Part shown: piece by piece, positions 5,638 through 56,364 of the stretch
Layout of the letters: every line of letters starts with the position of its first letter
Position numbering within the stretch: the stretch's first letter is position 1
Source of the DNA: SAR324 cluster bacterium
GTDB taxonomy: Bacteria > SAR324 > XYD2-FULL-50-16 > HCM1
Assembly: GCA_002995645.1 (NCBI GenBank)
Contig: PUHO01000006.1
Coordinates: 67,623 to 131,622 of the forward strand
Direction of reading: 5' to 3'
Length of the DNA stretch: 64,000 nucleotides
Program-made: the position numbers and the translations under genes
The notes under the pieces: model-generated
The model's input: the letters and a program-made list of their open reading frames with translations, nothing else
The model's database searches: none
What the model was told of the DNA's origin: nothing

Positions 5638-5640
5638 AGT

Positions 5641-5741
5641 AAGATAACCTGTCGTGCCTAGCTTAATAGGCAACAGCAAACAAGGCTTTAATCTTTGTTG
5701 GATTGCCACTCACAACACACGCCCCTTCCTTTGTTTCTTGC
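5641..5741 (-). pseudogene. Detached duplicate of the proS 3' end (22 nt downstream + stop + 76 nt of coding tail)
   Basis: 101 nt identical to 5775-5875 except one mismatch (GGATTGCC vs GGCTTGCC). It is not attached to any upstream ORF. Confidence 0.9.
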
Positions 5742-5744
5742 CCT

Positions 5745-5769
5745 AAATGAAGCTACTTAACTCGTATTT
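5745..5769 (+). repeat. Detached duplicate of the secA 3' end including the stop codon
   Basis: AAATGAAGCTACTTAACTCGTATTT matches 5534-5558 (AAATGAAACTACTTAACTCGTATTT) with one mismatch. Confidence 0.85.
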
Positions 5770-5796
5770 AAGATAAGATAACCTGTCGTGCCTAGC

Positions 5797-7233
5797 TTAA
5801 TAGGCAACAGCAAACAAGGCTTTAATCTTTGTTGGCTTGCCACTCACAACACACGCCCCTTCCTTTGTTTCTTGCGCCACAGGCAAACAACGAATAGTAG
5901 CTTTGGTTTCGTCTTGTATTTGATTAGCAACAGCAGAACTACCGTCCCAATAAGCATATACAAAACCACCTTGTTTAATATATTCTTTAAACTGCTCGTA
6001 GTTCTCAGCATAAAACGTATTTTCTTCTTGGAAAGTACGCGCTTTCTCAAATAAAGCGTTTTGTATATCTTCCAATAAATCCGGGATTTGCGTACCTAAT
6101 TCGTCTATAGGAATAAAATCTTTTTTACGCGTATCACGGCGAACAGCAACAACTATATTTTTTTCTATATCTTTAATACCAATCTCAATACGTAAAGGCG
6201 TACCTTGCTGTATCCATGTAAAAAAGCGATCGCCCGGGCTTAAATGAAATTGCGTATCTAGCTCCACTTTAAGGCTACCAAGTTGCTTTTTCAAAACAGA
6301 AACTACATTATCCGCATAAGCAAGTATCTGCTCTTTTTGTTCTTCTGATTTAACAATAGGAATAACAACAACCGGTCTCGGTGCTAAACGTGGTGGAATA
6401 ATAATACCGTCGTCATCGCCGTGAGTCATAATTAACCCACCAAGAATACGTGTACTCACGCCCCAACTTGTTGTATAAGCATATTGTAATTCATTGTTTT
6501 GATCTGAAAATTGAATCCCAAACGCTTTAGAAAAATTTTGTCCTAAATTATGGCTTGTTCCCATTTGCAAAGCTTTTTTATCTTGCATCAGCGCTTCTAC
6601 TGTATAAGTTGTATCAGCACCCGGAAACTTCTCATGTTCCGGTTTTGCACCGTCAATAACAGGAATAGCACAAACATTTTCTAAAAAATCTTTATATATG
6701 CCTAGCATTTTTTCCGTTTCCTCTTGTGCCTCTTGCGCATTAGCGTGCGCCGTATGCCCTTCTTGCCATAGAAATTCAGAAGTACGTAAAAATAACCTTG
6801 TACGTTTTTCCCAACGCATCACACTACACCACTGATTCATTAACATAGGCAAATCGCGGTAACTTTGTATCCATTGCGCATAGGCATAACCTATAATCGT
6901 TTCCGAACTAGGACGGATAACATATTTTTCTTCTAATTCTTTACCGCCGGCATAGGTAACCATAGCAAGCTCAGGAGCAAAACCTTCCACATGTTCCGCT
7001 TCTTTTGTAATAAACGACTCAGGAATTAACAAAGGAAAATAAGCATTGCGATGTCCTGTTTCTTTAAACTTTGTATCTAAGTAATTTTGCAACGACTCCC
7101 AAATGCTATAGCCGTTAGGCTGGATTATCATACATCCCTTAACCGGCGCATGGGTTGCCAATTTACCTACTTTAATAACGTCTTGATACCATTGAGGAAA
7201 ATTTTCTTTTCTTGGTGTAATGTTTTTTGCCAT
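5797..7233 (-). CDS. proS: Prolyl-tRNA synthetase (archaeal/eukaryote-like short form)
   Basis: 478-aa ORF. Class II ProRS signature SYRDLPMLMNQWCSVMRWE, anticodon-binding and C-terminal zinc-like domain, ends in AY as in this ProRS type. Confidence 0.92.
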   Translation of the reverse strand: MAKNITPRKENFPQWYQDVIKVGKLATHAPVKGCMIIQPNGYSIWESLQNYLDTKFKETGHRNAYFPLLIPESFITKEAEHVEGFAPELAMVTYAGGKELEEKYVIRPSSETIIGYAYAQWIQSYRDLPMLMNQWCSVMRWEKRTRLFLRTSEFLWQEGHTAHANAQEAQEETEKMLGIYKDFLENVCAIPVIDGAKPEHEKFPGADTTYTVEALMQDKKALQMGTSHNLGQNFSKAFGIQFSDQNNELQYAYTTSWGVSTRILGGLIMTHGDDDGIIIPPRLAPRPVVVIPIVKSEEQKEQILAYADNVVSVLKKQLGSLKVELDTQFHLSPGDRFFTWIQQGTPLRIEIGIKDIEKNIVVAVRRDTRKKDFIPIDELGTQIPDLLEDIQNALFEKARTFQEENTFYAENYEQFKEYIKQGGFVYAYWDGSSAVANQIQDETKATIRCLPVAQETKEGACVVSGKPTKIKALFAVAY

Positions 7234-7235
7234 AG

Positions 7236-8576
7236 TTATTCCCCTTCCAATTTATATATATCCTCTACGCTAACTTTAGCTTTTCCATCTATAAAGTTAA
7301 TAAATAGAGTTTCCTTTTTGATAATGTCGTGTATAGACTGAATTTGATTATTATCTATATTAGAAACAACAATCTTTTTTTGCGCAGCTTTAAGTTTGGG
7401 ATTAGCTAAATATAATCTTTTCTCTAACGCAAAAAGACGTTGCTCTTTAGTGTATATTTTTTGTTTTGTGTTAGCAACAAGTTTAAAAAACTTACTTTCA
7501 TATTGAAAACGTCGTTGTAACAAAAATGAAGTTGCCGTATTTTTTGTAAGCTGGTAGCGATTATCTTGCAATTTCCATAATAAATTTTTACTATATCGAT
7601 CGATCTGCCTACGTAACTGTTCTAATACGTTTTGATTACGTTGTCGTAAAGTTTCTATTTTTTGTACTAAACTACGTTGCATTCTATGCGATATAGAAGC
7701 AAGGTCGGAGTCTCGTTGTGCAAGGAAAGAAGAAAAAGCATATTGTATACGTGTTGTTAACATATCAATACGTTCTTGTAGATCTGTTTGTAAAATAACC
7801 GCTGTTTGCGCCGCTGCCGTTGGCGTAGAAGCGCGTACGTCAGCAACAAAATCGGCAATTGTAAAATCACGTTCATGCCCAATGCCAGTAATCACAGGGA
7901 TAGGCGATTCAAAAATAGCTTGCGCTATATTCCGATCGTTAAAAACGGCTAAATCCTCCATAGCCCCGCCACCGCGTGCTAAAATAATAACGTCAAAATT
8001 ATCTTTTCTTTTAGCAATAGCATACAAAGTTTGCACAATATCTTGCGCAACTGCGGCACCTTGCACAGCCACAGGAAAAAGCGTTGTCTCTACAAACGAA
8101 TTTCTTTGCTCAATAGTACGAAGGATATCGTCCTTAGCCGCACCAGTCATAGAAGTAACAATAGCTATCCGTTTAGCAAACAACGGTAATGCCTTTTTAT
8201 GTATAGCATCAAAATAGCCTTTTGCTTCTAAATCTTTTTTAGTCTGTTCAAATACGAGCTGTAATACACCAGCCCCGCAAGGGTGAAGTTCATCGCAAGT
8301 TAACTGATAAATCCCTCTTTCCGGATACAGTCCAATACGTGCGCGCATAACTACTTCTAATCCGTTTTCAAGGCGAAAAGGTACCGTTTTAGCAACACCG
8401 CGAAACAAAATCACTGCTATTTTAGCTTTTTTATCTTGTAAGTTAAAATAGCAGTGTCCTGCCGCCGATTCTGCAAACGAAATAATCTCTCCTTTAACCC
8501 AAACACTCGTAAAGTTATCTTCTAATAACCCTTTAATACGATATGTAATTTCCTCAACGGACAGAACGTTTTGCAC
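7236..8576 (-). CDS. xseA: Exodeoxyribonuclease VII large subunit
   Basis: 446-aa ORF. N-terminal OB-fold region (VWVKGEIISF...GHCYFNLQDKKAKI), central catalytic region (ARGGGAMEDL, TGIGHERD), long C-terminal coiled coil. Confidence 0.9.
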   Translation of the reverse strand: MQNVLSVEEITYRIKGLLEDNFTSVWVKGEIISFAESAAGHCYFNLQDKKAKIAVILFRGVAKTVPFRLENGLEVVMRARIGLYPERGIYQLTCDELHPCGAGVLQLVFEQTKKDLEAKGYFDAIHKKALPLFAKRIAIVTSMTGAAKDDILRTIEQRNSFVETTLFPVAVQGAAVAQDIVQTLYAIAKRKDNFDVIILARGGGAMEDLAVFNDRNIAQAIFESPIPVITGIGHERDFTIADFVADVRASTPTAAAQTAVILQTDLQERIDMLTTRIQYAFSSFLAQRDSDLASISHRMQRSLVQKIETLRQRNQNVLEQLRRQIDRYSKNLLWKLQDNRYQLTKNTATSFLLQRRFQYESKFFKLVANTKQKIYTKEQRLFALEKRLYLANPKLKAAQKKIVVSNIDNNQIQSIHDIIKKETLFINFIDGKAKVSVEDIYKLEGE

Positions 8577-26401: not shown

Positions 26402-27074
26402 TTTTCTTACTTCCTCTTTTTCTTTGCCCGGTTGGTGCTTACATTGTCAAAAATACCTTTATAAATCTTACGGTTTACCAATTTGTATTAGTTGTTATAA
26501 ACGCATTGTATTTTGGGATAAAGCACTTTGTCCTTTATGTAATCATTTCCATCCTTATTTAGCTTGTGAAAACTCTACTACCCCTTATTTAAGCCAAGTA
26601 TATGTTATTTGCCGCTATAATGAAATCTTGCATTCGCTTGTTACTAGCTTGAAATATAAAAAGAACTTACTTTCTAAAACTATTCTTGGGTTATTATTAT
26701 CCCATTATATGCGAAACAACCAACAAGAATGGCACCAGTTTGAAGGTATGATCCCTATTCCTATTAATAAACAAAGATTACGTACAAGAGGATTTAATCA
26801 AACTCATGTACTAGCATTAGCTCAATCTTATTTACCTATTTTATCTAATATATTAATTAAAACAAAATACCATGCGCACCAAGCCGGACTTTCCCAAGAA
26901 GAGCGATCGCGCAATATTATCCGTTCTTTTACAATAAAAAAATCCCTTCCACCTAAAAAATATCTTCTTTTAGACGACGTTTTCACAACAGGGAATACTT
27001 TAAATGAAGCGGCACGTATTTTATTAGAAGCCGGCGCTAAGGAAGTATGCGCTATTACACTTGCACATACGTAA
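26373..27074 (+). CDS. comF: ComF-family phosphoribosyltransferase-like competence protein
   Basis: 233-aa ORF. N-terminal CxxC pairs (CLHCQ, CISCYK, CPLCN), C-terminal PRTase motif LLLDDVFTTGNT. The start may be ATG 26388. Confidence 0.85.
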   Translation: MIIVVMNINNFLTSSFSLPGWCLHCQKYLYKSYGLPICISCYKRIVFWDKALCPLCNHFHPYLACENSTTPYLSQVYVICRYNEILHSLVTSLKYKKNLLSKTILGLLLSHYMRNNQQEWHQFEGMIPIPINKQRLRTRGFNQTHVLALAQSYLPILSNILIKTKYHAHQAGLSQEERSRNIIRSFTIKKSLPPKKYLLLDDVFTTGNTLNEAARILLEAGAKEVCAITLAHT

Positions 27075-27075
27075 C

Positions 27076-28002
27076 AAAAATAATGCTATTAAGTTAGATA
27101 CTTAATGTTTACTATCTTTTGAAAAAAGTTTGTCACCAATCAGCATAATCGGCACTTTTGTCATCATGTATACAAAGCACAAAATAAACAAACTTAACAT
27201 GACAAGACTAATAGCAAAATCATATAAAACTAAAATAATGCTATTAAGTTAGATACTTAATGTTTACTATCTTTTGAAAAAAGTTTGTCACCAATCGGCA
27301 TAATCGGCACTTTTGTCATCATGTATACAAAACACAAAATAAACAAACTTAACATGACAAGAGTAATAGCAAAATCATATAAAACTAAAATAATGCTATT
27401 AAGTTAGATACTTAATGTTTACTATCTTTTGAAAAAAGTTTGTCATCAATCGGCATAATCGGTACTTTTGTCATCATGTATACAATGCACAAAATAAACA
27501 AACTTAACATGACAAGAGTAATAGCAAAATCATATAAAACGAAAATAATGCTATTAAGTTAGATACTTAATGTTTACTATCTGTTGAAAAAAGTTTGTCA
27601 TCAATCGGCATAATCGCTACTTTTGTCATCATGTATACAAAACACAAAATAAACAAACTTAACATGACAAGACTAATAGCAAAATCATATAAAACAAAAA
27701 TAATGCTATTAAGTTAGATACTTAATCTTTACTATCTTTTGAAAAAAGTTTGTCACCAATCGGCATAATCGCTACTTTTGTCATCATGTATACAAAACAC
27801 AAAATAAACAAACTTAACATGACAAGACTAATAGCAAAATCATATAAAACTAAAATAATGCTATTAAGTTAGATACTTAATGTTTACTATCTTTTGAAAA
27901 AAGTTTGTCACCAATCGGCATAATAGGTACTTTTGTCATCATGTATACAAAACACAAAATAAACAAACTTAACATGCCAAGAGTAATAGCAAAATCATAT
28001 AA
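27076..28002 (-). repeat. Six tandem 155-bp units: five detached copies plus the functional copy of the actF 3' end with its downstream spacer
   Basis: The marker TAATGCTATT recurs at 27081, 27236, 27391, 27546, 27701 and 27856 (period exactly 155). Each unit is 27 nt of spacer, a stop codon and about 125 nt of actF coding tail. Only a few substitutions per unit and no indels. Confidence 0.95.
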
Positions 28003-29166
28003 GTTGAAAGAAAAACCAATAATTGCTTTATGCCCTATACCTAATGCCGCTTGATTTTCCTGTATAGACGGAACAACAAGCAAGTATTTCTCTAACCACA
28101 TACCAATAATAATGATAATGGCAATAATACGAGAAAACCAAACAGATTGGCTTGTCGTACGGCTAAGTAAACCAAAAAAAGGAATAACAACAACAGTCCC
28201 TGCAACAATCCAAAATACAATACGCCATTCATAAGAAAGCATACGTAAAGCGAGATACGGCGTTTCTTCCGGTAAGTTCGCATACCATATAGTAAGGATT
28301 TGCGCGAAAATAACATAGGTCCATAAAAGGCAACTAGCAAAACTTAGTTTAGACATATCGTGATATCGTTTTGTACTAATATATTCAGATAAGTTTTGCG
28401 TTTTTTTAAGGATACCGGCAATTAACATTAAAGAAGCAAAAGCAACCACAAGACCGGACACCGCATATTCAACGCCAAACATAGTACTAAACCAAGCTTG
28501 ATCTATAGACATAATCCAATCAAAAGCAATGAGACTAGTCAATAAACCGTACATAATAGCACATATAGGAGCTAAACGTCTCATTTTACAATAACTACGT
28601 TGCGTTTCATCGCTTTGTTCGCCATAAGAGCAGCTAAGAAGTTTCATAAACCAACTACGTTTCTCTGGAGCCACTAAACCGGCGTCCGCCCTAAGGCTAT
28701 AATATAAATAAGCAAAAGCAAAACCTAATAAAACAAGGTAAGTTATAATATTACGTTTTACAAAGAAAGAAAAATGAAGCCAACCTTGCTTTGCGGCAAT
28801 AACACGAGCTGGATATATCCATTCAAAGAAATGGCTTGCCCCAAAAAACAAGACAATAAACAAGACAAAACTAACCGGAGCAAAAGCAAACAAGCCTTCT
28901 GCCATACGTTTCACCGGTCTAGCCCAAACGGCAGAGGTAATAGTAAAAATTACAGACAAAGCTAAACCGCCAAGTGCCACGCTAGTAAAAAATAAATTAT
29001 TCACAAGTAAAATTTGCCATACGTCTTGCGCATGTGCCCCACTTTTACCAACGCAAAACATAACCACGCCAAAAGCAATGAATAACCATAGAACATGATA
29101 CAACCATTTAGGCGGACGTATTTGCACCTGTTTTTGTAGTATCTGCATATCTTCTTGTCGTATCAT
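27877..29166 (-). CDS. actF: Alternative complex III subunit ActF (NrfD-like membrane subunit 2)
   Basis: 429-aa polytopic membrane ORF, last gene of the actABCDEF-ordered operon, paralogous in character to ActC. Confidence 0.8.
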   Translation of the reverse strand: MIRQEDMQILQKQVQIRPPKWLYHVLWLFIAFGVVMFCVGKSGAHAQDVWQILLVNNLFFTSVALGGLALSVIFTITSAVWARPVKRMAEGLFAFAPVSFVLFIVLFFGASHFFEWIYPARVIAAKQGWLHFSFFVKRNIITYLVLLGFAFAYLYYSLRADAGLVAPEKRSWFMKLLSCSYGEQSDETQRSYCKMRRLAPICAIMYGLLTSLIAFDWIMSIDQAWFSTMFGVEYAVSGLVVAFASLMLIAGILKKTQNLSEYISTKRYHDMSKLSFASCLLWTYVIFAQILTIWYANLPEETPYLALRMLSYEWRIVFWIVAGTVVVIPFFGLLSRTTSQSVWFSRIIAIIIIIGMWLEKYLLVVPSIQENQAALGIGHKAIIGFSFNLYDFAITLGMLSLFILCFVYMMTKVPIMPIGDKLFSKDSKH

Positions 29167-35837: not shown

Positions 35838-37094
35838 ATGAATAAATTTTTCAAAACCGCCCTAATAACTTTATTAGGTCTTTCTTGTGCTACTATTGCT
35901 GTGGCGCAGGATACAACAAAAAAAAGCTCAGTTGATTTTTCTGGATATGCTATCGGTAGCTTTGGTTACAATATGCAAAAGCATACTGATAACACTGGAA
36001 ATGACTACAAAATAAATGAAATTGAAACAACGGCTCACGGTCGTTTAATTGTTAAAGGCACGACGCAATTGAACGATTGGACAACGCAAGGTATCTTACG
36101 TTTTGCAGCTGTCGGAACAAGTACTAGCACTGCTAACGGTGTTGAAATGCAAAGAGCTTACGCTGTTGCATCTAATAAAACAATAGAAATCAGCGCTGGT
36201 TTAATGGATCCTGCTGATATTGAATTTTCAAAAAAATATTTCAATACTAATCAAATAGTATGTGGTCATGATGATTTTAGCGAAGGTGATGAAACTACAT
36301 TTGCTGGTTGTGATTATGATGCTGGTTCTGATTTTGTCTTTGGTTCGTCTACCTACGTTCAAGTAGGTTATGTTGCTCTAGATGCACATAAAGTATACGC
36401 TTTATTCGGTCATGGTCCTAAAACAATCAAGAACGACTTTGACATAACTAAAGGTGGACAACCGATAGATCAAACAAACTTAGCAGACACACCATATGGA
36501 AGCACTTCAATGGGTCTAATATACAAGGGTAGTTTTGATGTGACTTCTACTGATAAATTAGGTGTTAACGCTGCTTTCTATTATGGTTTAGGCAAAATTA
36601 ATCCTCTGTATACTGATGTTAATAAAAATCTTGAAAAATCTACTTTTGACGGTCTTTCTATTTTTCAAACTTCAGTTTATGCAAACTATGACTACAACAA
36701 TCAAATTTCAGCTAGTTTAGGTTTCAACTACGTTGGTAAATCTACTGGTGATAAAGATGTTGAAAATAAAGACGAAGACGGTAATGCATCTAAATATAAA
36801 AAATCTGAAAGCCTTATGCGTCTTGTAGGTGTAGTAAACTATACTATTGATTCTGCACAAGGTGCTTCTGCTATTTTTACATATAATTCAGACAAAAATA
36901 AATACTGGAAAGATGGAAACGATGTAACAAGAATACAGGCTGGTCTTGGTTATTCTTATGCTCTTTCTTCTAACTTACAAGCTCTTGGCTTTGCAAGATA
37001 TGAAGGTATTAGCACAAAAACTAAAGATAAAAGTCTAAAAACAGACAAAAGATCTGATATTTCTTTAGGTACTGGTTTAGGATATAGCTTCTAA
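35838..37094 (+). CDS. Porin-like outer-membrane beta-barrel protein
   Basis: 418-aa ORF. SD AGGAG upstream, signal peptide ...CATIAVAQD, alternating beta-strand pattern rich in G/Y/D/N/T, C-terminal GLGYSF with terminal Phe typical of OMPs. Confidence 0.7.
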   Translation: MNKFFKTALITLLGLSCATIAVAQDTTKKSSVDFSGYAIGSFGYNMQKHTDNTGNDYKINEIETTAHGRLIVKGTTQLNDWTTQGILRFAAVGTSTSTANGVEMQRAYAVASNKTIEISAGLMDPADIEFSKKYFNTNQIVCGHDDFSEGDETTFAGCDYDAGSDFVFGSSTYVQVGYVALDAHKVYALFGHGPKTIKNDFDITKGGQPIDQTNLADTPYGSTSMGLIYKGSFDVTSTDKLGVNAAFYYGLGKINPLYTDVNKNLEKSTFDGLSIFQTSVYANYDYNNQISASLGFNYVGKSTGDKDVENKDEDGNASKYKKSESLMRLVGVVNYTIDSAQGASAIFTYNSDKNKYWKDGNDVTRIQAGLGYSYALSSNLQALGFARYEGISTKTKDKSLKTDKRSDISLGTGLGYSF

Positions 37095-37122
37095 TTAAAA
37101 AAGCTTCTTAACCTTTTATAAT

Positions 37123-37156
37123 CCGGCTAGAGCATTTTGCTTTAGCCGGTTTTTTT
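37123..37156 (+). terminator. Rho-independent terminator of the porin gene
   Basis: 11-bp stem CCGGCTAGAGC / GCTTTAGCCGG (one G-T wobble), 5-nt loop ATTTT, followed by a run of 7 T. Confidence 0.85.
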
Positions 37157-37160
37157 ATAC

Positions 37161-39626
37161 CTTCTCGTAACCGCTTTATAATCCCGCACTACTTCAGTTA
37201 AAAACGAGGTATCGCAAACCGGCTTCTTGTACTCCCTCCGCAAGCATTTCTCTAGTCGCTTATCTTGCAAGTTATATTACCCTCTCGCAAACACTGCTTA
37301 AAACAATAATAAAGGCGTGCCCTTCCTTCGTTTAGAGTTATAACCCACTCTCATACGAACACTACTTTAAGCAAGGAAGAGAACCACAATGCAAGCCGTC
37401 TTCTTTTACGCCCTCCGCAAGCTCTTCTCTACTCGCTTATCTTGTAAGTTATATTACTCTCTCGCAAACACTGCTTTAATCCCTAATGCTATCACTATAT
37501 AAACTTACTCTATAACCTCGCCTATAAGAGATTGCAGGTTAGTACTATTTTACTTCTTTGTTTTGATGTGGAAGAGGGGAAGCTTTATTTATATCATCAC
37601 TATATAAAGCTATGCTGGAAGTTTAGTTGCCTAGTTTCAGGCTTTGCAAAAGAAAGATCATTCATAATGCAAGCCGGCTTCTTTTATAAGCCCCCTGCAA
37701 TCTCTTTTCTACTCGCTTATCTTGCAAGTTATATTACTTTCTCGCAAATGCTTTTTCAATCAAGACGTTCACGCTTGCCAGCTTTACTTGCGTCCAATCT
37801 CCACACAAGCACTGCTTTAATCTCTATCGCTAGCACTATATAAACTTACTCTATAACCCTGCCTATAAGAGATTGAAGGTTAGTACTATTTTACTTCTTG
37901 CTTTTGATGTGGAAGAGAGGAAGCTTTATTTATATCATCACTATATAAAGCTATGATTGCCTAGTTTCAGGCGTTGCAAGAGGAAGATAACCGCAAGCCG
38001 GCTTCTTTTACGCCCTCCGCAAACTCGTCTCTACTCGCTTATCTTGCAAGTTATATTACTCCCTCGCAAATGCTTCTCTAGTCGCTTATCTTGTCAGTTA
38101 TATTACTCTCTCGCAAATGCTTTTTCAGTCAAGGCGTTCACGTTTGCCAGCTTTACTTGCGTCCAATCTCCACACAAGCACTATATAAACTTACTCTATA
38201 ATCTCGCCTATAAGAGATTGCAGGTTAGTACTATTTTACTTCTTTGTTTTGATATGGAAGAGGGGAAGCTTTATTTATATCATCACTCTATAAAGCTATG
38301 ATTGCATATTTTCAGGCGTTGCAAAAGGAAGAGAACCGCAATGCAAGCCGGCTTTTTTACGCCCCCTGCAATCTCTTTTCTACTCGCTTATCTTGCAAGT
38401 TATATTACTCTCTCGCAAGCTCTTTTCTAGCCGCTTATCTTGTAAGTTATATTACTCTCTCGCAAGCTCTTTTCTACTCGCTTATCTTGTAAATTATATT
38501 ACTCTATCGCAAATGCTTTTTCAGTCAAGGCGTTCACGTTTGCCAGCTTTACTTGCGTCTAATCTCCCACACTCAAGCACTGCTTTAATCCCTAATGCTA
38601 TCACTATATAAACTTACTCTATAACCTCGCCTATAATAGATTGAAGGTTAGTACTATTTTACTTCTTTGTTTTGATATGGAAGAAGGGAAGCTTTATTTA
38701 TATCATCACTATATAAAGCTATGCTAGAAGTTTGCTTGCCTAGTTTCAGGCTTTGCAAAAGGAAGAGAACCGCAATGCAAGCCGGCTTCTTTTATAAGCC
38801 CCCCCGCAAACTCTTCTCTAATCGCTTATCTTGCAAGTTATATTACTCTCTCGCAAGCACTGCTTTAATCTCTAGCACTATATAAACTTACTCTATAACC
38901 CCGCCTATAAGAAATTGAAGGTTAGTACTATTTTACTTCTTGCTTTTGATGTGGAAGAGGGGAAGCTTTATTTATATCATCATAAAGCTATGCTGGTAGT
39001 TTGCTTGCCTAGTTTCAAGCGTTGCAAAAGGAAGAGCATTCATAATGCAAGCCGGCTTTTTTACGCCCTCCGCAAGCACTTCTCTACTCGCTTATCTTGC
39101 AAGCTATATTACTCTCTCGCAAACTCTTCTCTAGTCGCTTATCTTGTAAGTTATATTACTCTCTCGCAAGCACTGCTTTAATCCCTAATGCTAGCACTAT
39201 ATAAACTTACTCTATAACCCCGCCTATAATAGATTGCAGGTTAGTACTATTTTACTTCTTTGTTTTGATGTGGAAAAGGGGAAGCTTCATTTATATCATC
39301 ACTATATAAAGCTATGCTGGTAGTTTGGTTGCCTAGTTTCAGGCTTTGCAAAAGAGAGAGCATCGCAAGCCGGCTTCTTTTACGCCCTCCGCAAGCTCTT
39401 CTCTAGTCGCTTATCTTGCAAGTTATATTACTTTCTCGCAAGCACTGCTTTAATCTCTAGCGCTATCAGTATATAAACTTACTCTATAACCTCGTCTATA
39501 AGAGATTGCAGGTTAGTACTATTTTACTTCTTGGTTTTGATATGGAAGAGGGGAAGCTTTATTTATATCATCACTATATAAAGCTATGCTAGGAATTTGG
39601 TTGCCTAGTTTCAGGCGTTGCAAAAA
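37161..39626. repeat. Roughly 2.5-kb hierarchical (higher-order) non-coding tandem repeat array
   Basis: Seven units whose A module (CTTACTCTATAAC...) starts at 37504, 37845, 38190, 38613, 38887, 39206 and 39478, preceded by a degenerate leader (37161-37503). Unit length varies (341, 345, 423, 274, 319, 272 bp) through 1-3 copies of a 47-bp sub-repeat and an optional module of about 61 bp. Confidence 0.95.
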
Positions 39627-39653
39627 AATCTTTACTTCTTTGAAGAAACAAAG
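39622..39653 (-). terminator. Rho-independent terminator of the tRNA-Lys/tRNA-Glu operon
   Basis: On the minus strand: CTTTGTTTC-TTCAAA-GAAGTAAAG (9-bp stem with two G-U pairs) followed by ATTTTTTT. It lies about 75 nt downstream of tRNA-Glu. Confidence 0.65.
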
Positions 39654-39726
39654 CTTATAACATAGTAAAATACTACGTAGTAATTGCAAAATAATAAAAT
39701 GTACGTGGAATGAGCAAGAAAAATTG

Positions 39727-39799
39727 CATCCCCAAGGGGATTCGAACCCCTGCCGTCGCCGTGAAAGGGCGATGTCCTAGGCCTCTAGACGATGGGGAC
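39727..39799 (-). tRNA. tRNA-Glu (anticodon UUC)
   Basis: Reverse complement GTCCCCATCGTCTAGAGGCCTAGGACATCGCCCTTTCACGGCGACGGCAGGGGTTCGAATCCCCTTGGGGATG folds into a cloverleaf. Anticodon loop CTTTCAC, T-loop TTCGAAT. CCA is not encoded. Confidence 0.93.
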
Positions 39800-39818
39800 A
39801 CTATAGCAAGCAGTATAT

Positions 39819-39894
39819 TGGTGAGCCGAGCGGGGATCGAACCCACGACAACCTGATTAAAAGTCAGATGCTCTACCAACTGAGCTACCGGCCC
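39819..39894 (-). tRNA. tRNA-Lys (anticodon UUU)
   Basis: Reverse complement GGGCCGGTAGCTCAGTTGGTAGAGCATCTGACTTTTAATCAGGTTGTCGTGGGTTCGATCCCCGCTCGGCTCACCA. Anticodon loop CTTTTAA, T-loop TTCGATC. CCA is encoded. Confidence 0.93.
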
Positions 39895-39910
39895 CAACCA
39901 ATATTTTTTA

Positions 39911-39939
39911 ATTATATACAGATACTTTCTAAATGTCAA
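39911..39939 (-). promoter_or_regulatory. Consensus sigma70 promoter of the tRNA operon
   Basis: On the minus strand: TTGACA, 17-nt spacer, TATAAT (both hexamers perfect consensus), ending 16 nt upstream of the tRNA-Lys 5' end. Confidence 0.7.
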
Positions 39940-48716: not shown

Positions 48717-50189
48717 TTATATTTGCAAAGAAGGAGTCGCTACTTGCTTATGTTGTTCAAAAAAGTGCGCTATTTGAAATAAAGTTTCTTCTTGCAAAAA
48801 GTTAGCTTGAAACTGAATCCCAACAGGAAGCGACTCTTTAGAAAGTCCGGCAGGAAGAGAGATCGCGGGAATGCTTGCTAAGTTAGCAGGAATAGTAAAC
48901 ACATCTTGTAAAAAATAAAACAAAGGATCGTCTGTTTTGTAGTTAAGATCAAACGGCGCGCTTGGAGCAGTTGGGCAAACAATAACGTCTACTTGTTTGA
49001 AAATGGCAGCATATTGGCTACGAAGTAAATTTTGCACTTGTAAAGCTTTATTATAATACGCATCATAGTAACCGGACGATAAAACGTAAGTCCCTAATAA
49101 AATACGCATCTTGACTTCTTTACCAAATCCATGTTCCCTTGATAATTCGTAAATCGATTCTAAAGTCTCTGCTTCTTGTGCACGGCTACCATAATGTACG
49201 CCGTCATATCGCCCTAGATTAGAGCTACACTCTGCCGGAGCTATAATATAATAAGCCGCTAAAGATTGTTTAATATTAGGAACGGAAACTTCCACAAACT
49301 CGCACCCTGATTCTTTCAAAAAAGCAAGGCTTTCGTCATATACGGCACGTATATCACTTGGCAGTTCATAAGCTGCTTGTTCTTTAATAATACCAACTTT
49401 AAGCCCTTTAATTGACTTATGTAACGCCGATTTATAAGAAGGCACAGGTACTTTCAAGCTTGTAGCGTCTTTAGGATCAAATCCGGCAATAGCTTCTAAC
49501 AATAAAGCCGCATCTTCTACGTCCCTTGTCATAGGTCCGGCTTGGTCAAGAGAGCTAGCAAACGCCGTCATACCCCATCGGCTTACCCGTCCGTACGTTG
49601 GTTTTAAGCCAACAATATGATTAAACGAAGCCGGTTGACGAATAGATCCGCCTGTATCCGTACCAATCGCACCAACTGATAAACCGGCAGAAACGGCAAC
49701 GGCAGAACCGCCAGACGATCCGCCCGGAACTTTAGTTAAATCATAGGGATTTTTAACAGGAAAAAAAGAAGAATTTTCATTACTTGACCCCATGGCAAAT
49801 TCGTCCATATTGGTTTTGCCAATCATCATATAAGAAGCTTCTTGCAACTTTGTTGTTACTGTTGAGTCATATGGCGCAACATAATTTTTTAACATTTGTG
49901 AAGCACATGTTGTCGGCGTTCCTTTAATGTTAAAAAGATCTTTAATAGCTAGCGGCATGCCTTCTAGTTCGCCCACAGCATCGCCTTGCATAATTTTTTT
50001 ATCTACTGCCTTAGCTTGGTTTAAAACTTCTTCTTCTTTTGCTAAATATAGATAGACGCCTAGTTCTTTATTAGTATCTTTAATACGTTGTAAAACGGCT
50101 TGTACTATTTCTTCTGTTGTAATTTCTTTGGCAAGTCGTTTTTGATGCAGTTCGTGAATAGGAGTAAAAGCTAAGCTCATAATAGACAT
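48717..50189 (-). CDS. gatA: Glutamyl/aspartyl-tRNA amidotransferase subunit A
   Basis: 490-aa ORF. Amidase signature GGSSGGSAVAVSAG...GTDTGGSIRQPASF. Confidence 0.95.
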   Translation of the reverse strand: MSIMSLAFTPIHELHQKRLAKEITTEEIVQAVLQRIKDTNKELGVYLYLAKEEEVLNQAKAVDKKIMQGDAVGELEGMPLAIKDLFNIKGTPTTCASQMLKNYVAPYDSTVTTKLQEASYMMIGKTNMDEFAMGSSNENSSFFPVKNPYDLTKVPGGSSGGSAVAVSAGLSVGAIGTDTGGSIRQPASFNHIVGLKPTYGRVSRWGMTAFASSLDQAGPMTRDVEDAALLLEAIAGFDPKDATSLKVPVPSYKSALHKSIKGLKVGIIKEQAAYELPSDIRAVYDESLAFLKESGCEFVEVSVPNIKQSLAAYYIIAPAECSSNLGRYDGVHYGSRAQEAETLESIYELSREHGFGKEVKMRILLGTYVLSSGYYDAYYNKALQVQNLLRSQYAAIFKQVDVIVCPTAPSAPFDLNYKTDDPLFYFLQDVFTIPANLASIPAISLPAGLSKESLPVGIQFQANFLQEETLFQIAHFFEQHKQVATPSLQI

Positions 50190-50257: not shown

Positions 50258-50280
50258 GAATATTTTTAGCTATTTTCTTT

Positions 50281-50815
50281 TTAGATCTTTAGCGATTGGT
50301 CTAGATTCCTATATGGCAACGCTTCGGCAAGGTGTTCTGTTTGTATTGATTCGCTATTTTCCAGATCGGCAATCGTACGACTCACCTTCAAAATACTATC
50401 GTACCCCCCGTCCGCTTAGCTTAAGTTTACTAACTGCTAATTGCAAAAGGGCTTCGCTTTGCTTATCTAACTTATTATAGTTTTGATTTTATTTCTTACA
50501 ATTAGAATTCTAGCGCTCTGTCTAGGTTCCTATATTGCAATGCTTCGGCAAGGTGCTCTGTTTGTATTGATTCGCTATTTTCCAGATCGGCAATTGTACG
50601 ACTCACTTTCAAAATACTATCGTACCCCCGTCCGCTTAGCTTAAGCTTACTAACTGCTAATTGCAAAAGGGATTCGCTTTGTTTATTTAGCTTGTTTTGA
50701 TTTTATTTGTTACAATTAGAATTCTAACGCTCTGTCCAGATTCCTATATTACAACGCTTCGGCAAGGTGCTTTGCTTTGTTTATCTAGTTTGTTATGATT
50801 TTGAATTTGTTACAA
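50281..50815 (-). pseudogene. Three detached tandem copies (one internally deleted) of the comM 3' end
   Basis: Copies of the stop-codon region TTAGAATTCTA... start at 50281 (most diverged), 50502 and 50716 (about 115 nt internally deleted). The functional copy starts at 50816. Each full unit is about 215 bp: 6 nt downstream plus about 210 nt of coding tail. Confidence 0.9.
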
Positions 50816-52354
50816 TTAGAATTCTAACGATCTGTCTAGATTCCTATATTGCAATGCTTCGGCAAGGTGTTCTGTTTGTATCGCTTCGCTATTTTCTAAA
50901 TCGGCAATCGTACGACTCACTTTCAAAATACTATCGTACCCCCGTCCGCTTAGCTTAAGCTTACTAACTGCTAATTGCAAAAGTGATTCGCTTTGTTTAT
51001 CTAGCTTGCAATAGTTTTGAATTTGCTTCGCTTTTAACAATCCGTTACGAAGCGTTTCATTTTGATATCTATCTTTTTGTTTTTGGCTAGCTTGGATTAC
51101 TTTCTCTTTCATCTGCTTACTAGAAGTAAACGAGGTTGTTGCTTGCCTTGCATCGGTTGAAATCACAGGCACTTCAATTTGCAAATCAATTCTATCTAGT
51201 AACGGACCGGATAAACGACTACGATACCGCGTGATTTGAGTCACACTGCAACGGCATTCATGATCGGCATCACCTAAATAACCACAAGGGCAAGGATTGG
51301 TGGCGGCTATTAATTGAAAATCAGCAGGGAACACAAAACTATCTTTTGCTCGTGTAATTGTAATTTGTTTATCCTCTAGCGGTTGCCTTAGCAAGTCTAA
51401 TGTAGCGCGCGAATATTCAGCTAATTCATCAAGAAATAAAACGCCATGATGTGCTAATGAAACTTCGCCAGCTCGTGGCGTACTTCCCCCTCCAACTAAG
51501 CCGGCACCGGAAACAGAATGGTGCGGCGTACGAAAAGGGCGTGTAATACGTTGTAAATCTTCTGTGGTAAATCCGTAATATAAAGAATAAATTTTTGCGA
51601 CTTGCAGTATTTCATCATAAGAAAGAGGTGACAAAATCGAAGGAAACCTACTAGCTAGCATAGATTTGCCCGATCCCGGTGGTCCTATTAATAAAATATG
51701 ATGTCTTCCTGCTGCTGCAATTTCTAAAGCGCGTTTTGCCTGTATATGCCCTTTAACATCGGCATAATCAAGCTCATTAGTGTGTCCTAGATTCTGTTTC
51801 AGGACGTCCTGTAAAGTGTCCTGGTATGATTCCAATACTTTTTCTTCTGTGTAAAAATCGATAATATCCTTAAGCGTATCAGCTATATAGATATCCATTT
51901 CCGGGACTATTGCCGCAACAGGTGCGTTCTCTCTAGGAAGGATACAAGTTTTTATGCCCTGTTTTTTTGCCTCCATTAACATAGCTAATATCCCGGCAAC
52001 AGGACGTATTCTACCTTGTAAAGAAAGCTCCCCAACTAAGAGCGTATTCTCTCCGCTTGTTGCAGGTAATCGTTTATCCGCTTTCAGAATTGCAATCGCT
52101 ATTGGCAAATCAAATCCGGTTCCGCCTTTACTTAATCCGGCAGGGGCAAGGTTCACCACAACGCGGCGAATAGGGAATCCGCCGGCTACATTAGACAGGC
52201 TTGCTGTTACACGCTCTCTACTTTCGCGAATAGCATGATCTGGCAAACCTACAATTTGAAACGCCCCTAAGCCAATAGAAACGTCAGCTTCCACTTCTAT
52301 AATATGAGCCTCAATTCCTATAACGGTTGCTGTATAGGTTATTATCTCGCTCAT
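50816..52354 (-). CDS. comM: Mg-chelatase-like AAA+ protein ComM/YifB
   Basis: 512-aa ORF. N-terminal Lon-protease-like domain, Walker A GPPGSGKSM, Walker B VLFLDEL, zinc-like CPCGYLGDADHECRC insertion. Confidence 0.93.
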   Translation of the reverse strand: MSEIITYTATVIGIEAHIIEVEADVSIGLGAFQIVGLPDHAIRESRERVTASLSNVAGGFPIRRVVVNLAPAGLSKGGTGFDLPIAIAILKADKRLPATSGENTLLVGELSLQGRIRPVAGILAMLMEAKKQGIKTCILPRENAPVAAIVPEMDIYIADTLKDIIDFYTEEKVLESYQDTLQDVLKQNLGHTNELDYADVKGHIQAKRALEIAAAGRHHILLIGPPGSGKSMLASRFPSILSPLSYDEILQVAKIYSLYYGFTTEDLQRITRPFRTPHHSVSGAGLVGGGSTPRAGEVSLAHHGVLFLDELAEYSRATLDLLRQPLEDKQITITRAKDSFVFPADFQLIAATNPCPCGYLGDADHECRCSVTQITRYRSRLSGPLLDRIDLQIEVPVISTDARQATTSFTSSKQMKEKVIQASQKQKDRYQNETLRNGLLKAKQIQNYCKLDKQSESLLQLAVSKLKLSGRGYDSILKVSRTIADLENSEAIQTEHLAEALQYRNLDRSLEF

Positions 52355-54870: not shown

Positions 54871-56364
54871 ATGCTAATTTCTTGCCAAAACTGTAGTTCT
54901 CAATATGAAATTGATGAAAATAAAATTACAGAACCTAATTCTTTTATTCGCTGCAAAGCTTGTAAAGAGCCTATTTTCCTGCATCGGACACAAAATTCCT
55001 TGCAAATTAGCGATACTCCGCAGACTTTGATTCTCTGCCCAACTTGTGAAACTACGTATTCTTTATCGGCAGATGTTTTTACAGATGAGGGACCTACGCA
55101 AACAAAATGCTATAAATGTAAGTCACTTTTTAATAGTTACGCTTCTGGAAATACGGAAATACTAGACAAGGGAGAACAAGATTCGTCAACTGACAACAAA
55201 GATAATATAAACTTAGAGACAGCAGGTAACGAAGAGCAAGAAGAAACTAATGCTATAGACGATCAATTTGATTCTATTTTAACAGAATCTTTAGATATTG
55301 ATAGTGATGATCGTTCTAATCTTTTTCTTTCAACCGATGAAGAGACAAACAAAAATAACCAAGAAAATCAAGACACTACAAAAAACTTATTTTCTACTCA
55401 GGAAGAAAATTTAAACCAAGATATAGAAAACAATTTATTTTCTACCGATTCAGAAGAAGTCGATTTAAATGAGGAAGATAGCCTATTCTCTCCTCAAGAA
55501 GGCGATTCAAATCAAAATATAGAAACCGATTTATTTTCTACTGATTCAGAAATACTTTCTTTAGATAATACAGATACCTCGCTCTCTGATGATACAATAA
55601 AAATCACTCCCGACTCTACGGAAGAAGATTTATTTGCAGCTAATATAACAACTCCAAACCAAGATAAAAACAATATCTCCTCTAAAGGTATTATAGAAGA
55701 CGACCTATTTGATAATGAAACAGTTGCTGAGACACTAGATAAAGACTCGCCTTTTACTCAAAAAGACGAACGCTCATCAATAAAGCAAGAAGAAAATCCT
55801 GCCATAACAAAGCAAGCTGGCAAAAGAAGTAACCATGCAACTTTAAAAATAGTTGCCGCTGCTTGTATAATATGTCTTCTTGTTGGGACTACCTATTTCT
55901 GGTACTTTGCTCATCAAAGAGCACAAGTAGCTAGCACATCTAAAAACATAGTTTCCCAAATTCAAAATAAAATTTGGAAAAGACCTATTTCAATTTCGAA
56001 TCCATTGAAAGGAAAATATATTTTTAACAATAAAGAACAAAAATATATATTTATTATGGAAGGCAAGTTAAGGAATGAGACGAATAATCCAATCCATTTT
56101 GCGCATATTACGCTAAGCGCTAGAATCTACAATAAAAGTAACGAACTGTTATCTTCTAATATAAGCTATGCTGGAAAAAATCTTACTATAAAGCAAATTA
56201 CTAATAATAAGTTGCAAAAATTACAAAACTTCTTAAATCAAGATCCAGGCAAAGAAATTGATATTCCCGCTCATGGGCAAATTAATTTTCAAGCTTTATT
56301 CCCTAGACCTTCCACACGCATTTACGCTATGGAAGCGCATGTTGTTGCTTTCAAAAAAATCTAG
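54871..56364 (+). CDS. MJ0042-type double zinc-ribbon membrane protein with acidic LF-repeat linker and DUF3426-like C-terminus
   Basis: 497-aa ORF. Two zinc ribbons (C5/C8/C28/C31 and C56/C59/C80/C83), acidic low-complexity region with seven [NSD]LF motifs (aa 149-281), TM helix (aa 325-346), C-terminal beta-rich domain. Confidence 0.7.
   Translation: MLISCQNCSSQYEIDENKITEPNSFIRCKACKEPIFLHRTQNSLQISDTPQTLILCPTCETTYSLSADVFTDEGPTQTKCYKCKSLFNSYASGNTEILDKGEQDSSTDNKDNINLETAGNEEQEETNAIDDQFDSILTESLDIDSDDRSNLFLSTDEETNKNNQENQDTTKNLFSTQEENLNQDIENNLFSTDSEEVDLNEEDSLFSPQEGDSNQNIETDLFSTDSEILSLDNTDTSLSDDTIKITPDSTEEDLFAANITTPNQDKNNISSKGIIEDDLFDNETVAETLDKDSPFTQKDERSSIKQEENPAITKQAGKRSNHATLKIVAAACIICLLVGTTYFWYFAHQRAQVASTSKNIVSQIQNKIWKRPISISNPLKGKYIFNNKEQKYIFIMEGKLRNETNNPIHFAHITLSARIYNKSNELLSSNISYAGKNLTIKQITNNKLQKLQNFLNQDPGKEIDIPAHGQINFQALFPRPSTRIYAMEAHVVAFKKI

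Follow-up and report, generated by a model that had tools for sequence, protein, structure and literature searches.

Complex variable-number tandem repeats (VNTRs) between bacterial genes have been described in Wolbachia wMel, where the loci VNTR-141 and VNTR-105 have periods of 105-141 bp, contain internal repeats and hairpins, and reach up to 7.3 copies (Riegler et al. 2012, PMC3287509). Ehrlichia ruminantium is described as the bacterium richest in tandem repeats among those reported (PMC3287509): totals obtained with Tandem Repeats Finder (TRF) were 6.3% for this species, 1.6% for Wolbachia wMel and 0.38% for Escherichia coli, and the mean period of the E. ruminantium repeats was 139 bp (PMC3287509, Table 4). 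In E. ruminantium the non-coding regions are targeted by repeat expansion and contraction (Collins et al. 2005; Frutos et al. 2006; PMC10710844), and for this species, as for the Wolbachia VNTR loci, the proposed mechanism is slipped-strand mispairing triggered by hairpins and followed by concerted evolution (PMC3287509). We studied a tandem array of ~2.5 kb at positions 37161-39629 of a 64,000-nucleotide stretch (hereafter the window; contig PUHO01000006.1 of assembly GCA_002995645.1, positions 67,623 to 131,622) from a SAR324 cluster bacterium. The array is non-coding, shows no sign of a known RNA family, and lies between a porin-like gene and a tRNA operon that are transcribed toward each other. 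It is probably a locus-specific complex VNTR, i.e., a higher-order minisatellite, seeded from the spacer between the two terminators and reshaped by unequal recombination, with no demonstrated dedicated function.

Reading of positions 36900-39900 and cutting at every recurrence of CTTACTCTATAA resolved the array into a degenerate leader and seven units, the last of them cut short; unit lengths and module C counts were exactly those given in the original prediction, a model's reading of the same letters. Alignment of the units showed that they are made up of five modules, named A, B, C, D and T. Copies of module A, ~110 bp long, show differences at 3-9 of 110 positions, and those of module B terminate in GCAAGCCGGCTTCTTTTACGCC. 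The 47-bp sub-repeat, module C, is present twice in the leader and 1, 2, 3, 1, 2 and 1 times in units 1 to 6; module D is restricted to units 1-3, and unit 2 has no module T. The periods detected by TRF in the array were 345, 319, 272 and 47 bp. Divergence among the units is 3-12%, and the leader, more diverged and with identity down to ~66%, looks like an older layer.

All repeat families in the array are direct repeats, the only inverted similarity being a 37-nt segment in which the start of module A is 70-73% complementary to the B/C junction of some units. The copies of module C abut without unique spacers, and the modules located between C copies are themselves repeated. Module A is flanked by a 13-bp direct repeat, ATCACTATATAAA, and was considered as a miniature inverted-repeat transposable element; inspection by eye, rather than a formal test, revealed no terminal inverted repeats and this candidate was set aside. 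A difference in sequence was also noted in units 1 and 4 (37671-37700 and 38779-38810), where TTTTATAAGCC replaces TTTTACGCC after the palindrome AAGCCGGCTT, extending a GGCTT/AAGCC stem from 3 to 5 bp. This variant looks like a templated mutation that corrects a quasi-palindrome, and it would fit template switching at the array locus.

Table 1 Positions of the array components, the flanking features and the other tandem duplications of the window
Feature	Position	Strand	Description
Porin-like outer-membrane open reading frame (ORF)	35838-37094	+	Left flank; 418 aa, orphan, ends ...GLGYSF
Porin-gene intrinsic terminator	37123-37156	+	12-bp stem with 7 G-C pairs, 37123-37149; T7 at 37150-37156
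Copy zero	37129-37183	+	From the porin-terminator loop through its 3' arm and T-run into the bases beyond; alignable to the B end and C start of unit 5
Leader	37161-37503		343 bp; pair of B-end + C + T units beginning at 37214 and 37391, with a decayed stretch between; without intact module A
Unit 1	37504-37844		341 bp; A-B-C-D-T
Unit 2	37845-38189		345 bp; A-B-C-C-D, without T
Unit 3	38190-38612		423 bp; A-B-C-C-C-D-T
Unit 4	38613-38886		274 bp; A-B-C-T
Unit 5	38887-39205		319 bp; A-B-C-C-T
Unit 6	39206-39477		272 bp; A-B-C-T
Unit 7, truncated	39478-39629		152 bp; A and start of B; last bases TTGCAAAA enter the A/T-run of the tRNA terminator
Module C, 12 copies of 47 bp	Starts at 37239, 37416, 37696, 38018, 38065, 38367, 38414, 38461, 38805, 39071, 39118, 39390		
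Nested module C sub-array	38367-38507		3 copies, in unit 3
Module D, 62-65 bp	37748-37809, 38117-38178, 38513-38577		
tRNA-operon intrinsic terminator	39622-39653	-	10-bp A/U-rich hairpin 39653-39630, then A + U7 at 39628-39622
tRNA-Lys(UUU) + tRNA-Glu(UUC)	39726-39894	-	Right flank
tRNA-operon promoter	39911-39939	-	Perfect sigma-70 consensus, TTGACA-17-TATAAT, 12/12
proS	5797-7233	-	Duplication 5640-5875; last 26 codons + 23 nt, one extra copy, 99% identity
Alternative complex III (ACIII) operon, last gene	27877-29166	-	Array 27066-28140; 6 copies, 155-bp period
comM	50816-52354	-	Array 50259-51025; ~65 C-terminal codons, ~2.5 extra times

The position of the array edges is informative about its origin. 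As predicted, the array is flanked by the intrinsic terminators of the porin gene and of the tRNA operon; the region of the latter folds with z = -2.4. At the right side, unit 7 stays identical to the rest as far as TTGCAAAA, the opposite-strand reading of the T-run in the tRNA-operon terminator, and the predicted edge stood. The left edge, placed by the prediction at 37161, turned out to be blurred, as similarity to the units begins within the porin terminator at ~37129. A local alignment of the segment that we named copy zero with unit 5 pairs AGAGCATT..TGC..AGCCGG.TTTTTT..CC.TC.CG.AA with z = 4.4, a score that no shuffle attained out of 300 preserving dinucleotides. Because ~12 alignments were compared, we take the resemblance of the porin terminator's 3' half to the module B end as suggestive. 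Taken together, both edges would make one unit equivalent to the stretch that starts inside the porin terminator and stops in the T-run of its tRNA-operon counterpart, the presumed ancestral inter-terminator spacer. That the array was seeded in this spacer had been one of the proposals made for it, and the terminator edges together with the porin-terminator alignment support it.

Two origins from the flanking genes themselves were discarded. Similarity to the units does not extend past the porin terminator into the coding end of the porin gene, and the 12 nt shared by the tRNA terminator and module A, considered as a trace of a tRNA-derived origin, were not significant (p ~0.05-0.09). A search of the array for tRNA-like hits found none, and on neither strand did it resemble the adjacent tRNA genes, in agreement with the predicted lack of tRNA fragments.

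On these grounds we propose that the array would have started from an ancestral spacer of ~270 bp between the two terminators. A first tandem duplication of this spacer would have had its end-points inside both terminator hairpins, and the resulting units would have grown in number and been reshuffled by unequal recombination and gene conversion, while module C would have given rise to a nested 47-bp array by slippage and modules D and T would have been lost in some units. Variants in the units form a mosaic pattern: at positions 32 and 65 in module A each of the four possible allele combinations occurs, a sign of recombination between units, and module B variants are common to non-adjacent units. 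As for the mechanism, we infer slipped-strand or template-switch events at the hairpins; the array may have persisted because a gap closed by two converging terminators would be among the few sites where additional DNA disrupts neither a promoter nor an operon. The mosaic sharing of variants could also come from chimeric assembly paths, had short reads been mis-joined or a smaller repeat been inflated. Such an artefact is very improbable, given that the many substitutions and differences in module content provide the assembler with unique paths, that four separate, clean, in-register arrays lie on one contig, and that this contig spans 141 kb.

A repeat search of the whole window revealed three further tandem duplications in the 64 kb, each one copying the 3' end of a minus-strand gene together with some bases downstream of it (Table 1). 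The existence of these duplications indicates that the array is part of a genome-wide habit and not a one-off device, and the array looks like the oldest of the tandem duplications at gene ends in the window. Each copy in the ACIII array consists of the final 38 codons, the stop codon and 38 nt, and every copy reads FAI(T/S)L...KLFSKDSKH followed by a stop. In the comM array, full 221-bp units and partial 100-bp units make up a second higher-order pattern. Regarding the surroundings of these arrays, the ACIII array fills the convergent gap up to the stop codon of a comF-like gene at 27074 and each of its copies has a small A/T-rich hairpin; the comM array occupies a co-directional gap before an amidase-family ORF of 490 aa (48717-50189); and the proS duplication, located in the convergent gap with secA, has its copies separated by 32 unrelated bases, an arrangement that could be a young duplication or the scar of an integrated element. 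A tandem repeat of another sort, two copies of 96 nt with 74% identity at 55388-55579, lies inside the ORF of a zinc-ribbon protein (54871-56364) and is coding, unlike the other arrays.

Of the 5 convergent junctions 3 have tandem arrays, as does 1 of the 41 remaining junctions (Fisher p = 0.0025). Widths at the two array-free convergent junctions were -14 and 20 nt, so the earlier statement that convergent genes lie 0-36 nt apart holds for these two junctions, while the other three carry tandem duplications. The junction statistics fit with the idea that the products of duplication do least harm at a convergent junction sealed by terminators. The combined share of the arrays in the window is 6.9%, or ~4.3% when the TRF rows were merged by hand, densities that come from 64 kb only and that would be an extrapolation if taken as genome-wide values.

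The GC skew is negative over all 64 kb, regardless of gene strand. The minus strand is probably the leading strand, in which case all four arrays extend from leading-strand genes. Since the skew does not switch anywhere in the window, a replication origin or terminus was rejected as an explanation of the array. An alternative to passive tolerance would be a directed process that left the four arrays as its footprint: duplication would be triggered at the intrinsic terminators of leading-strand genes, e.g., by fork stalling or template switching at the point where transcription stops, convergent junctions would be actively expanded in this lineage, and the array would be kept between two very strongly transcribed converging units as a topological or termination buffer, possibly via a protein bound to the module C core. 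We regard this course of events as unlikely.

The array does not encode a protein, as predicted. Each of the six frames contains stop codons, and the frames shift from unit to unit without conservation. Counts of stops per ~822 codons were 28-37 for the frames of the plus strand, which is pyrimidine-rich, and 69-70 for those of the minus strand. Neither the called ORFs nor the stop-free stretches of the array had a match in Pfam, and the ATG of module A yields different peptides in the GATGTGG and GATATGG variants. When 46 proteins of the window were used as tblastn queries against the array, the best E value was 0.041, not significant, and the derivation of the array from any gene of the window was discarded on this result.

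Several observations weigh against reading the array as a functionless product of spacer duplication, and its composition is one of them. The GC content of the array is 38.9%, compared with 17-26% for ordinary spacers and 34-36% for genes of the window, and its purine skew resembles that of minus-strand genes. Given that the array is GC-rich and its units are only 3-12% apart, the ancestral unit was already GC-rich and differed from a typical spacer; it may have been the remnant of a gene, a gene end or an RNA, it may have been under constraint, or its GC content may have been raised by biased gene conversion. One possibility that follows the pattern of the window is that the array is what is left of tandem 3'-end copies of a gene located near the tRNA operon or the porin gene and since lost or diverged. 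The three other arrays of the window are demonstrably copies of gene 3' ends, GC content and purine skew are like those of minus-strand coding sequence and not of spacer, and module D read on the minus strand gives ...WRLDASKAGKRERLD and then a stop in 3/3 copies. We nevertheless consider a decayed gene end quite unlikely: stops amount to ~8.5% in all three minus-strand frames, against a rough ~7% for random sequence of like composition, the length of module C, 47 bp, is not divisible by three, and the array showed neither a Pfam match nor tblastn similarity to the proteins of the window.

The behavior of one segment in folding analyses also weighs against a functionless array. In 6/6 units, shuffled sequences fold somewhat less well than the minus-strand B+C segment (z from -0.75 to -2.7), for which a consensus hairpin of -25.7 kcal/mol is predicted. 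The array could act at the RNA level, either through small transcription units, as hypothesized in the original prediction, which would follow one another along the plus strand, or as a long 3' extension of the tRNA operon on the minus strand processed into B+C hairpin pieces. In keeping with the first of these forms, the motif TTGATR-17-TATTTA was found in 6/7 A modules, not in each one as had been claimed; the second would draw on the perfect promoter of the tRNA operon, on its A/U-rich and possibly leaky terminator, and on a purine skew like that of minus-strand genes. Most of the evidence is against both. Between 35.4 and 40.1 kb, 15 promoter-like sites were detected where 14.3 were expected, and inside the array, in any unit, we detected no terminator-like site; by eye, the proposed promoter has ~7/12 consensus positions (4/6 + 3/6) and is weak beside that of the tRNA operon. 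A whole unit folded no better than its shuffled controls (z = +1.1 for the plus strand and -1.2 for the minus strand), and the same was true of single modules (z from -1.25 to +1.6). Covariation among units, suggested as a check on RNA structure, was sought with alifold in the B+C segment and gave 1-2 compensatory pairs only, in array copies that are not independent of each other. Searched at the gathering threshold, Rfam yielded the two tRNAs and no other family, and relaxing the cutoff to E <= 5 brought no credible match. Finally, both flanking terminators face the array, so read-through into it should be limited. We conclude that the small transcription units do not hold up and that an RNA role in either form is improbable.

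A third observation of this kind concerns module C, within which a core of 24 nt is better conserved than its flanks in the 12 copies, the old leader copies included; the core holds 4 of the 17 variable columns (Fisher p = 0.006). It corresponds to CGCTTATCTTG(C/T)AAGTTATATTAC, contains the near-palindrome TATCTTGCAAGTTA and is represented by the sequence CGCTTATCTTGCAAGTTATATTAC, with TATCTTG(C/T)AAGTTA as the core motif. This core is the best hint of a candidate binding site in the array. Module C cores, together with the perfect 10-bp palindrome AAGCCGGCTT, which is exact in units 1-6, might recruit a dimeric DNA-binding protein such as a nucleoid-associated protein, gyrase or a regulator, and the array would then absorb positive supercoiling between the converging units or titrate the regulator. 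The flanks are probably highly expressed, given the consensus promoter of the tRNA operon and the porin-like gene, and the raised GC content argues against a plain spacer. The motif occurs 12 times in the array, compared with 0.12 occurrences expected by chance, but this excess follows automatically from tandem duplication and says nothing about binding. Moreover, no gene for a candidate DNA-binding protein adjoins the array, and a spacing of 47 bp, ~4.5 helical turns, would place successive sites on opposite faces of the helix. The sole copy of the motif outside the array, at 8432, was rejected as a regulatory site, since it is inside the conserved OB-fold coding part of xseA and is thus a chance match. 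A protein-binding array acting in cis is rather unlikely in our opinion; to a real cis-acting role of whatever kind, given the GC content and the core conservation in module C, we would assign a small chance. The age of the array has to be placed on the same side of the balance, because the divergence of the units and of the leader indicates that it has survived for some time in a compact genome, in which most co-directional gaps are <40 nt. Even so, the array taken by itself is striking but probably functionless, a lack of function that we infer from the sequence, and we saw nothing that would point to a defence system.

As to its genomic context, the genes around the array encode ACIII subunits, the porin-like ORF, the tRNAs, FBA, a tetratricopeptide repeat (TPR) protein, bactofilin and PheST. 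The porin-like ORF itself had a weak MipA-like match at the C-terminus as its sole Pfam signal, and its product had no homologue besides itself among 5.8 billion proteins. The FBA stop codon and tRNA-Lys are 63 nt apart; the tRNA-operon promoter sits in this gap, and its perfect TTGACA-17-TATAAT indicates that the organism uses sigma-70-type promoters.

We then inspected the distribution of the array beyond its locus. Dispersal of the modules, which the original prediction had proposed to check, was not observed: blastn with word size 7 found none elsewhere in the 64-kb window (best E 0.08). The invariant motif of module C, scanned as CGCTTATCTTG-N5-TATATTAC, gave two chance matches in 185,579 species-representative genomes and one in JGI metagenomes, all three in coding sequences. 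This motif and a 19-mer of module A were absent from IMG/VR viral contigs, and a 730-bp unit had no match in plasmids and phages. These negatives speak for an array peculiar to its locus, as far as the searches reach, but they weigh little, given that the collections searched contain no close relative or second strain. The best SecA match was 64% identical and the best FBA match 77%, the nearest named relatives being Lambdaproteobacteria, SAR324 and 'Deltaproteobacteria' metagenome-assembled genomes; the source lineage is deep and barely sampled.

Among the nearest FBA homologues (75-77% identity), most lack the order FBA - tRNA-Lys - tRNA-Glu. One relative, L005, whose FBA is 75% identical, keeps this order and has an ORF directly after tRNA-Glu and no array; the array is therefore not ancestral to that arrangement. 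Long-period repeats were not found in 45 kb around secA of the nearest relatives (SecA 63-64%), loci that are represented by short-read metagenome contigs, which tend to break at repeats. The FBA loci of L003 and L005 were likewise free of long-period repeats, except for one 45-bp repeat in L003.

Several described classes of repeats share features with the array. The pneumococcal BOX element has a modular structure, boxA-boxB(n)-boxC, is found at more than 100 dispersed intergenic sites and behaves like a small mobile element. Like BOX, the array contains an internal module of 45-47 bp in variable tandem number between fixed modules; in contrast to BOX, its units are arranged head to tail at one locus and we saw no terminal inverted repeats. 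A BOX-like mobile element was rejected on the grounds that, despite the variable internal module, there is no dispersed copy in 64 kb. Bacterial interspersed mosaic elements (BIMEs) are composed of repetitive extragenic palindromic (REP) units in alternating orientation, with hundreds of dispersed extragenic copies located after terminators and often between converging genes. The array is also extragenic, is placed after terminators and is a mosaic of short motifs, but its modules are all direct repeats and have no other copy in the window, so the BIME-like mosaic put forward in the original prediction was abandoned.

Three other classes were examined and rejected. Clustered regularly interspaced short palindromic repeats (CRISPR) do not agree with C copies that abut without unique spacers, and no cas gene was found among the ORFs of the window scanned against Pfam; the same scan detected no integrase or transposase, as had been predicted. 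Tandem small RNAs and type I toxin-antitoxin systems (Ldr, Sib/Ibs) were discarded because the units have no promoter or terminator of their own, no Rfam match and no conserved small ORF. For integron cassettes, no integrase was present among the scanned ORFs and the units are without ORFs; attC sites were not searched with a dedicated model.

With regard to repeat content, the window is rich in long-period repeats (4.3-6.9%, periods 100-345 bp), as is E. ruminantium, although the two organisms are unrelated. A free-standing core region of the chromosome, which includes secA, proS, pheST, gatA, lpxB and the ACIII genes, thus carries a long-period repeat load like that of E. ruminantium. If the concentration of repeats at convergent junctions and gene 3' ends, with edges in terminators, holds genome-wide, this bacterium would offer a natural system for studying how terminators of transcription give rise to tandem duplications and at which sites they are tolerated in a compact genome, and its arrays would be usable as VNTR markers for strain typing.

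The closest resemblance is to the VNTRs of Wolbachia. Those VNTRs are defined by copy-number polymorphism between strains, and the array is known here from one strain. The array period is 2-4 times longer (272-423 vs 105-141 bp), its units are 88-93% identical as opposed to 98-99%, it alone has a variable 47-bp array nested in the units, and its edges coincide with two converging terminators. In both cases the repeats are locus-specific, non-coding, arranged head to tail between two genes and extend over ~1 kb or more, with long periods that contain internal short repeats and hairpins and with some periods internally deleted. The array presents a head-to-tail non-coding arrangement, a long period with sub-repeats and deletions, and a single locus within the 64-kb window, and it is best filed with the complex intergenic VNTRs of the VNTR-141/VNTR-105 type.

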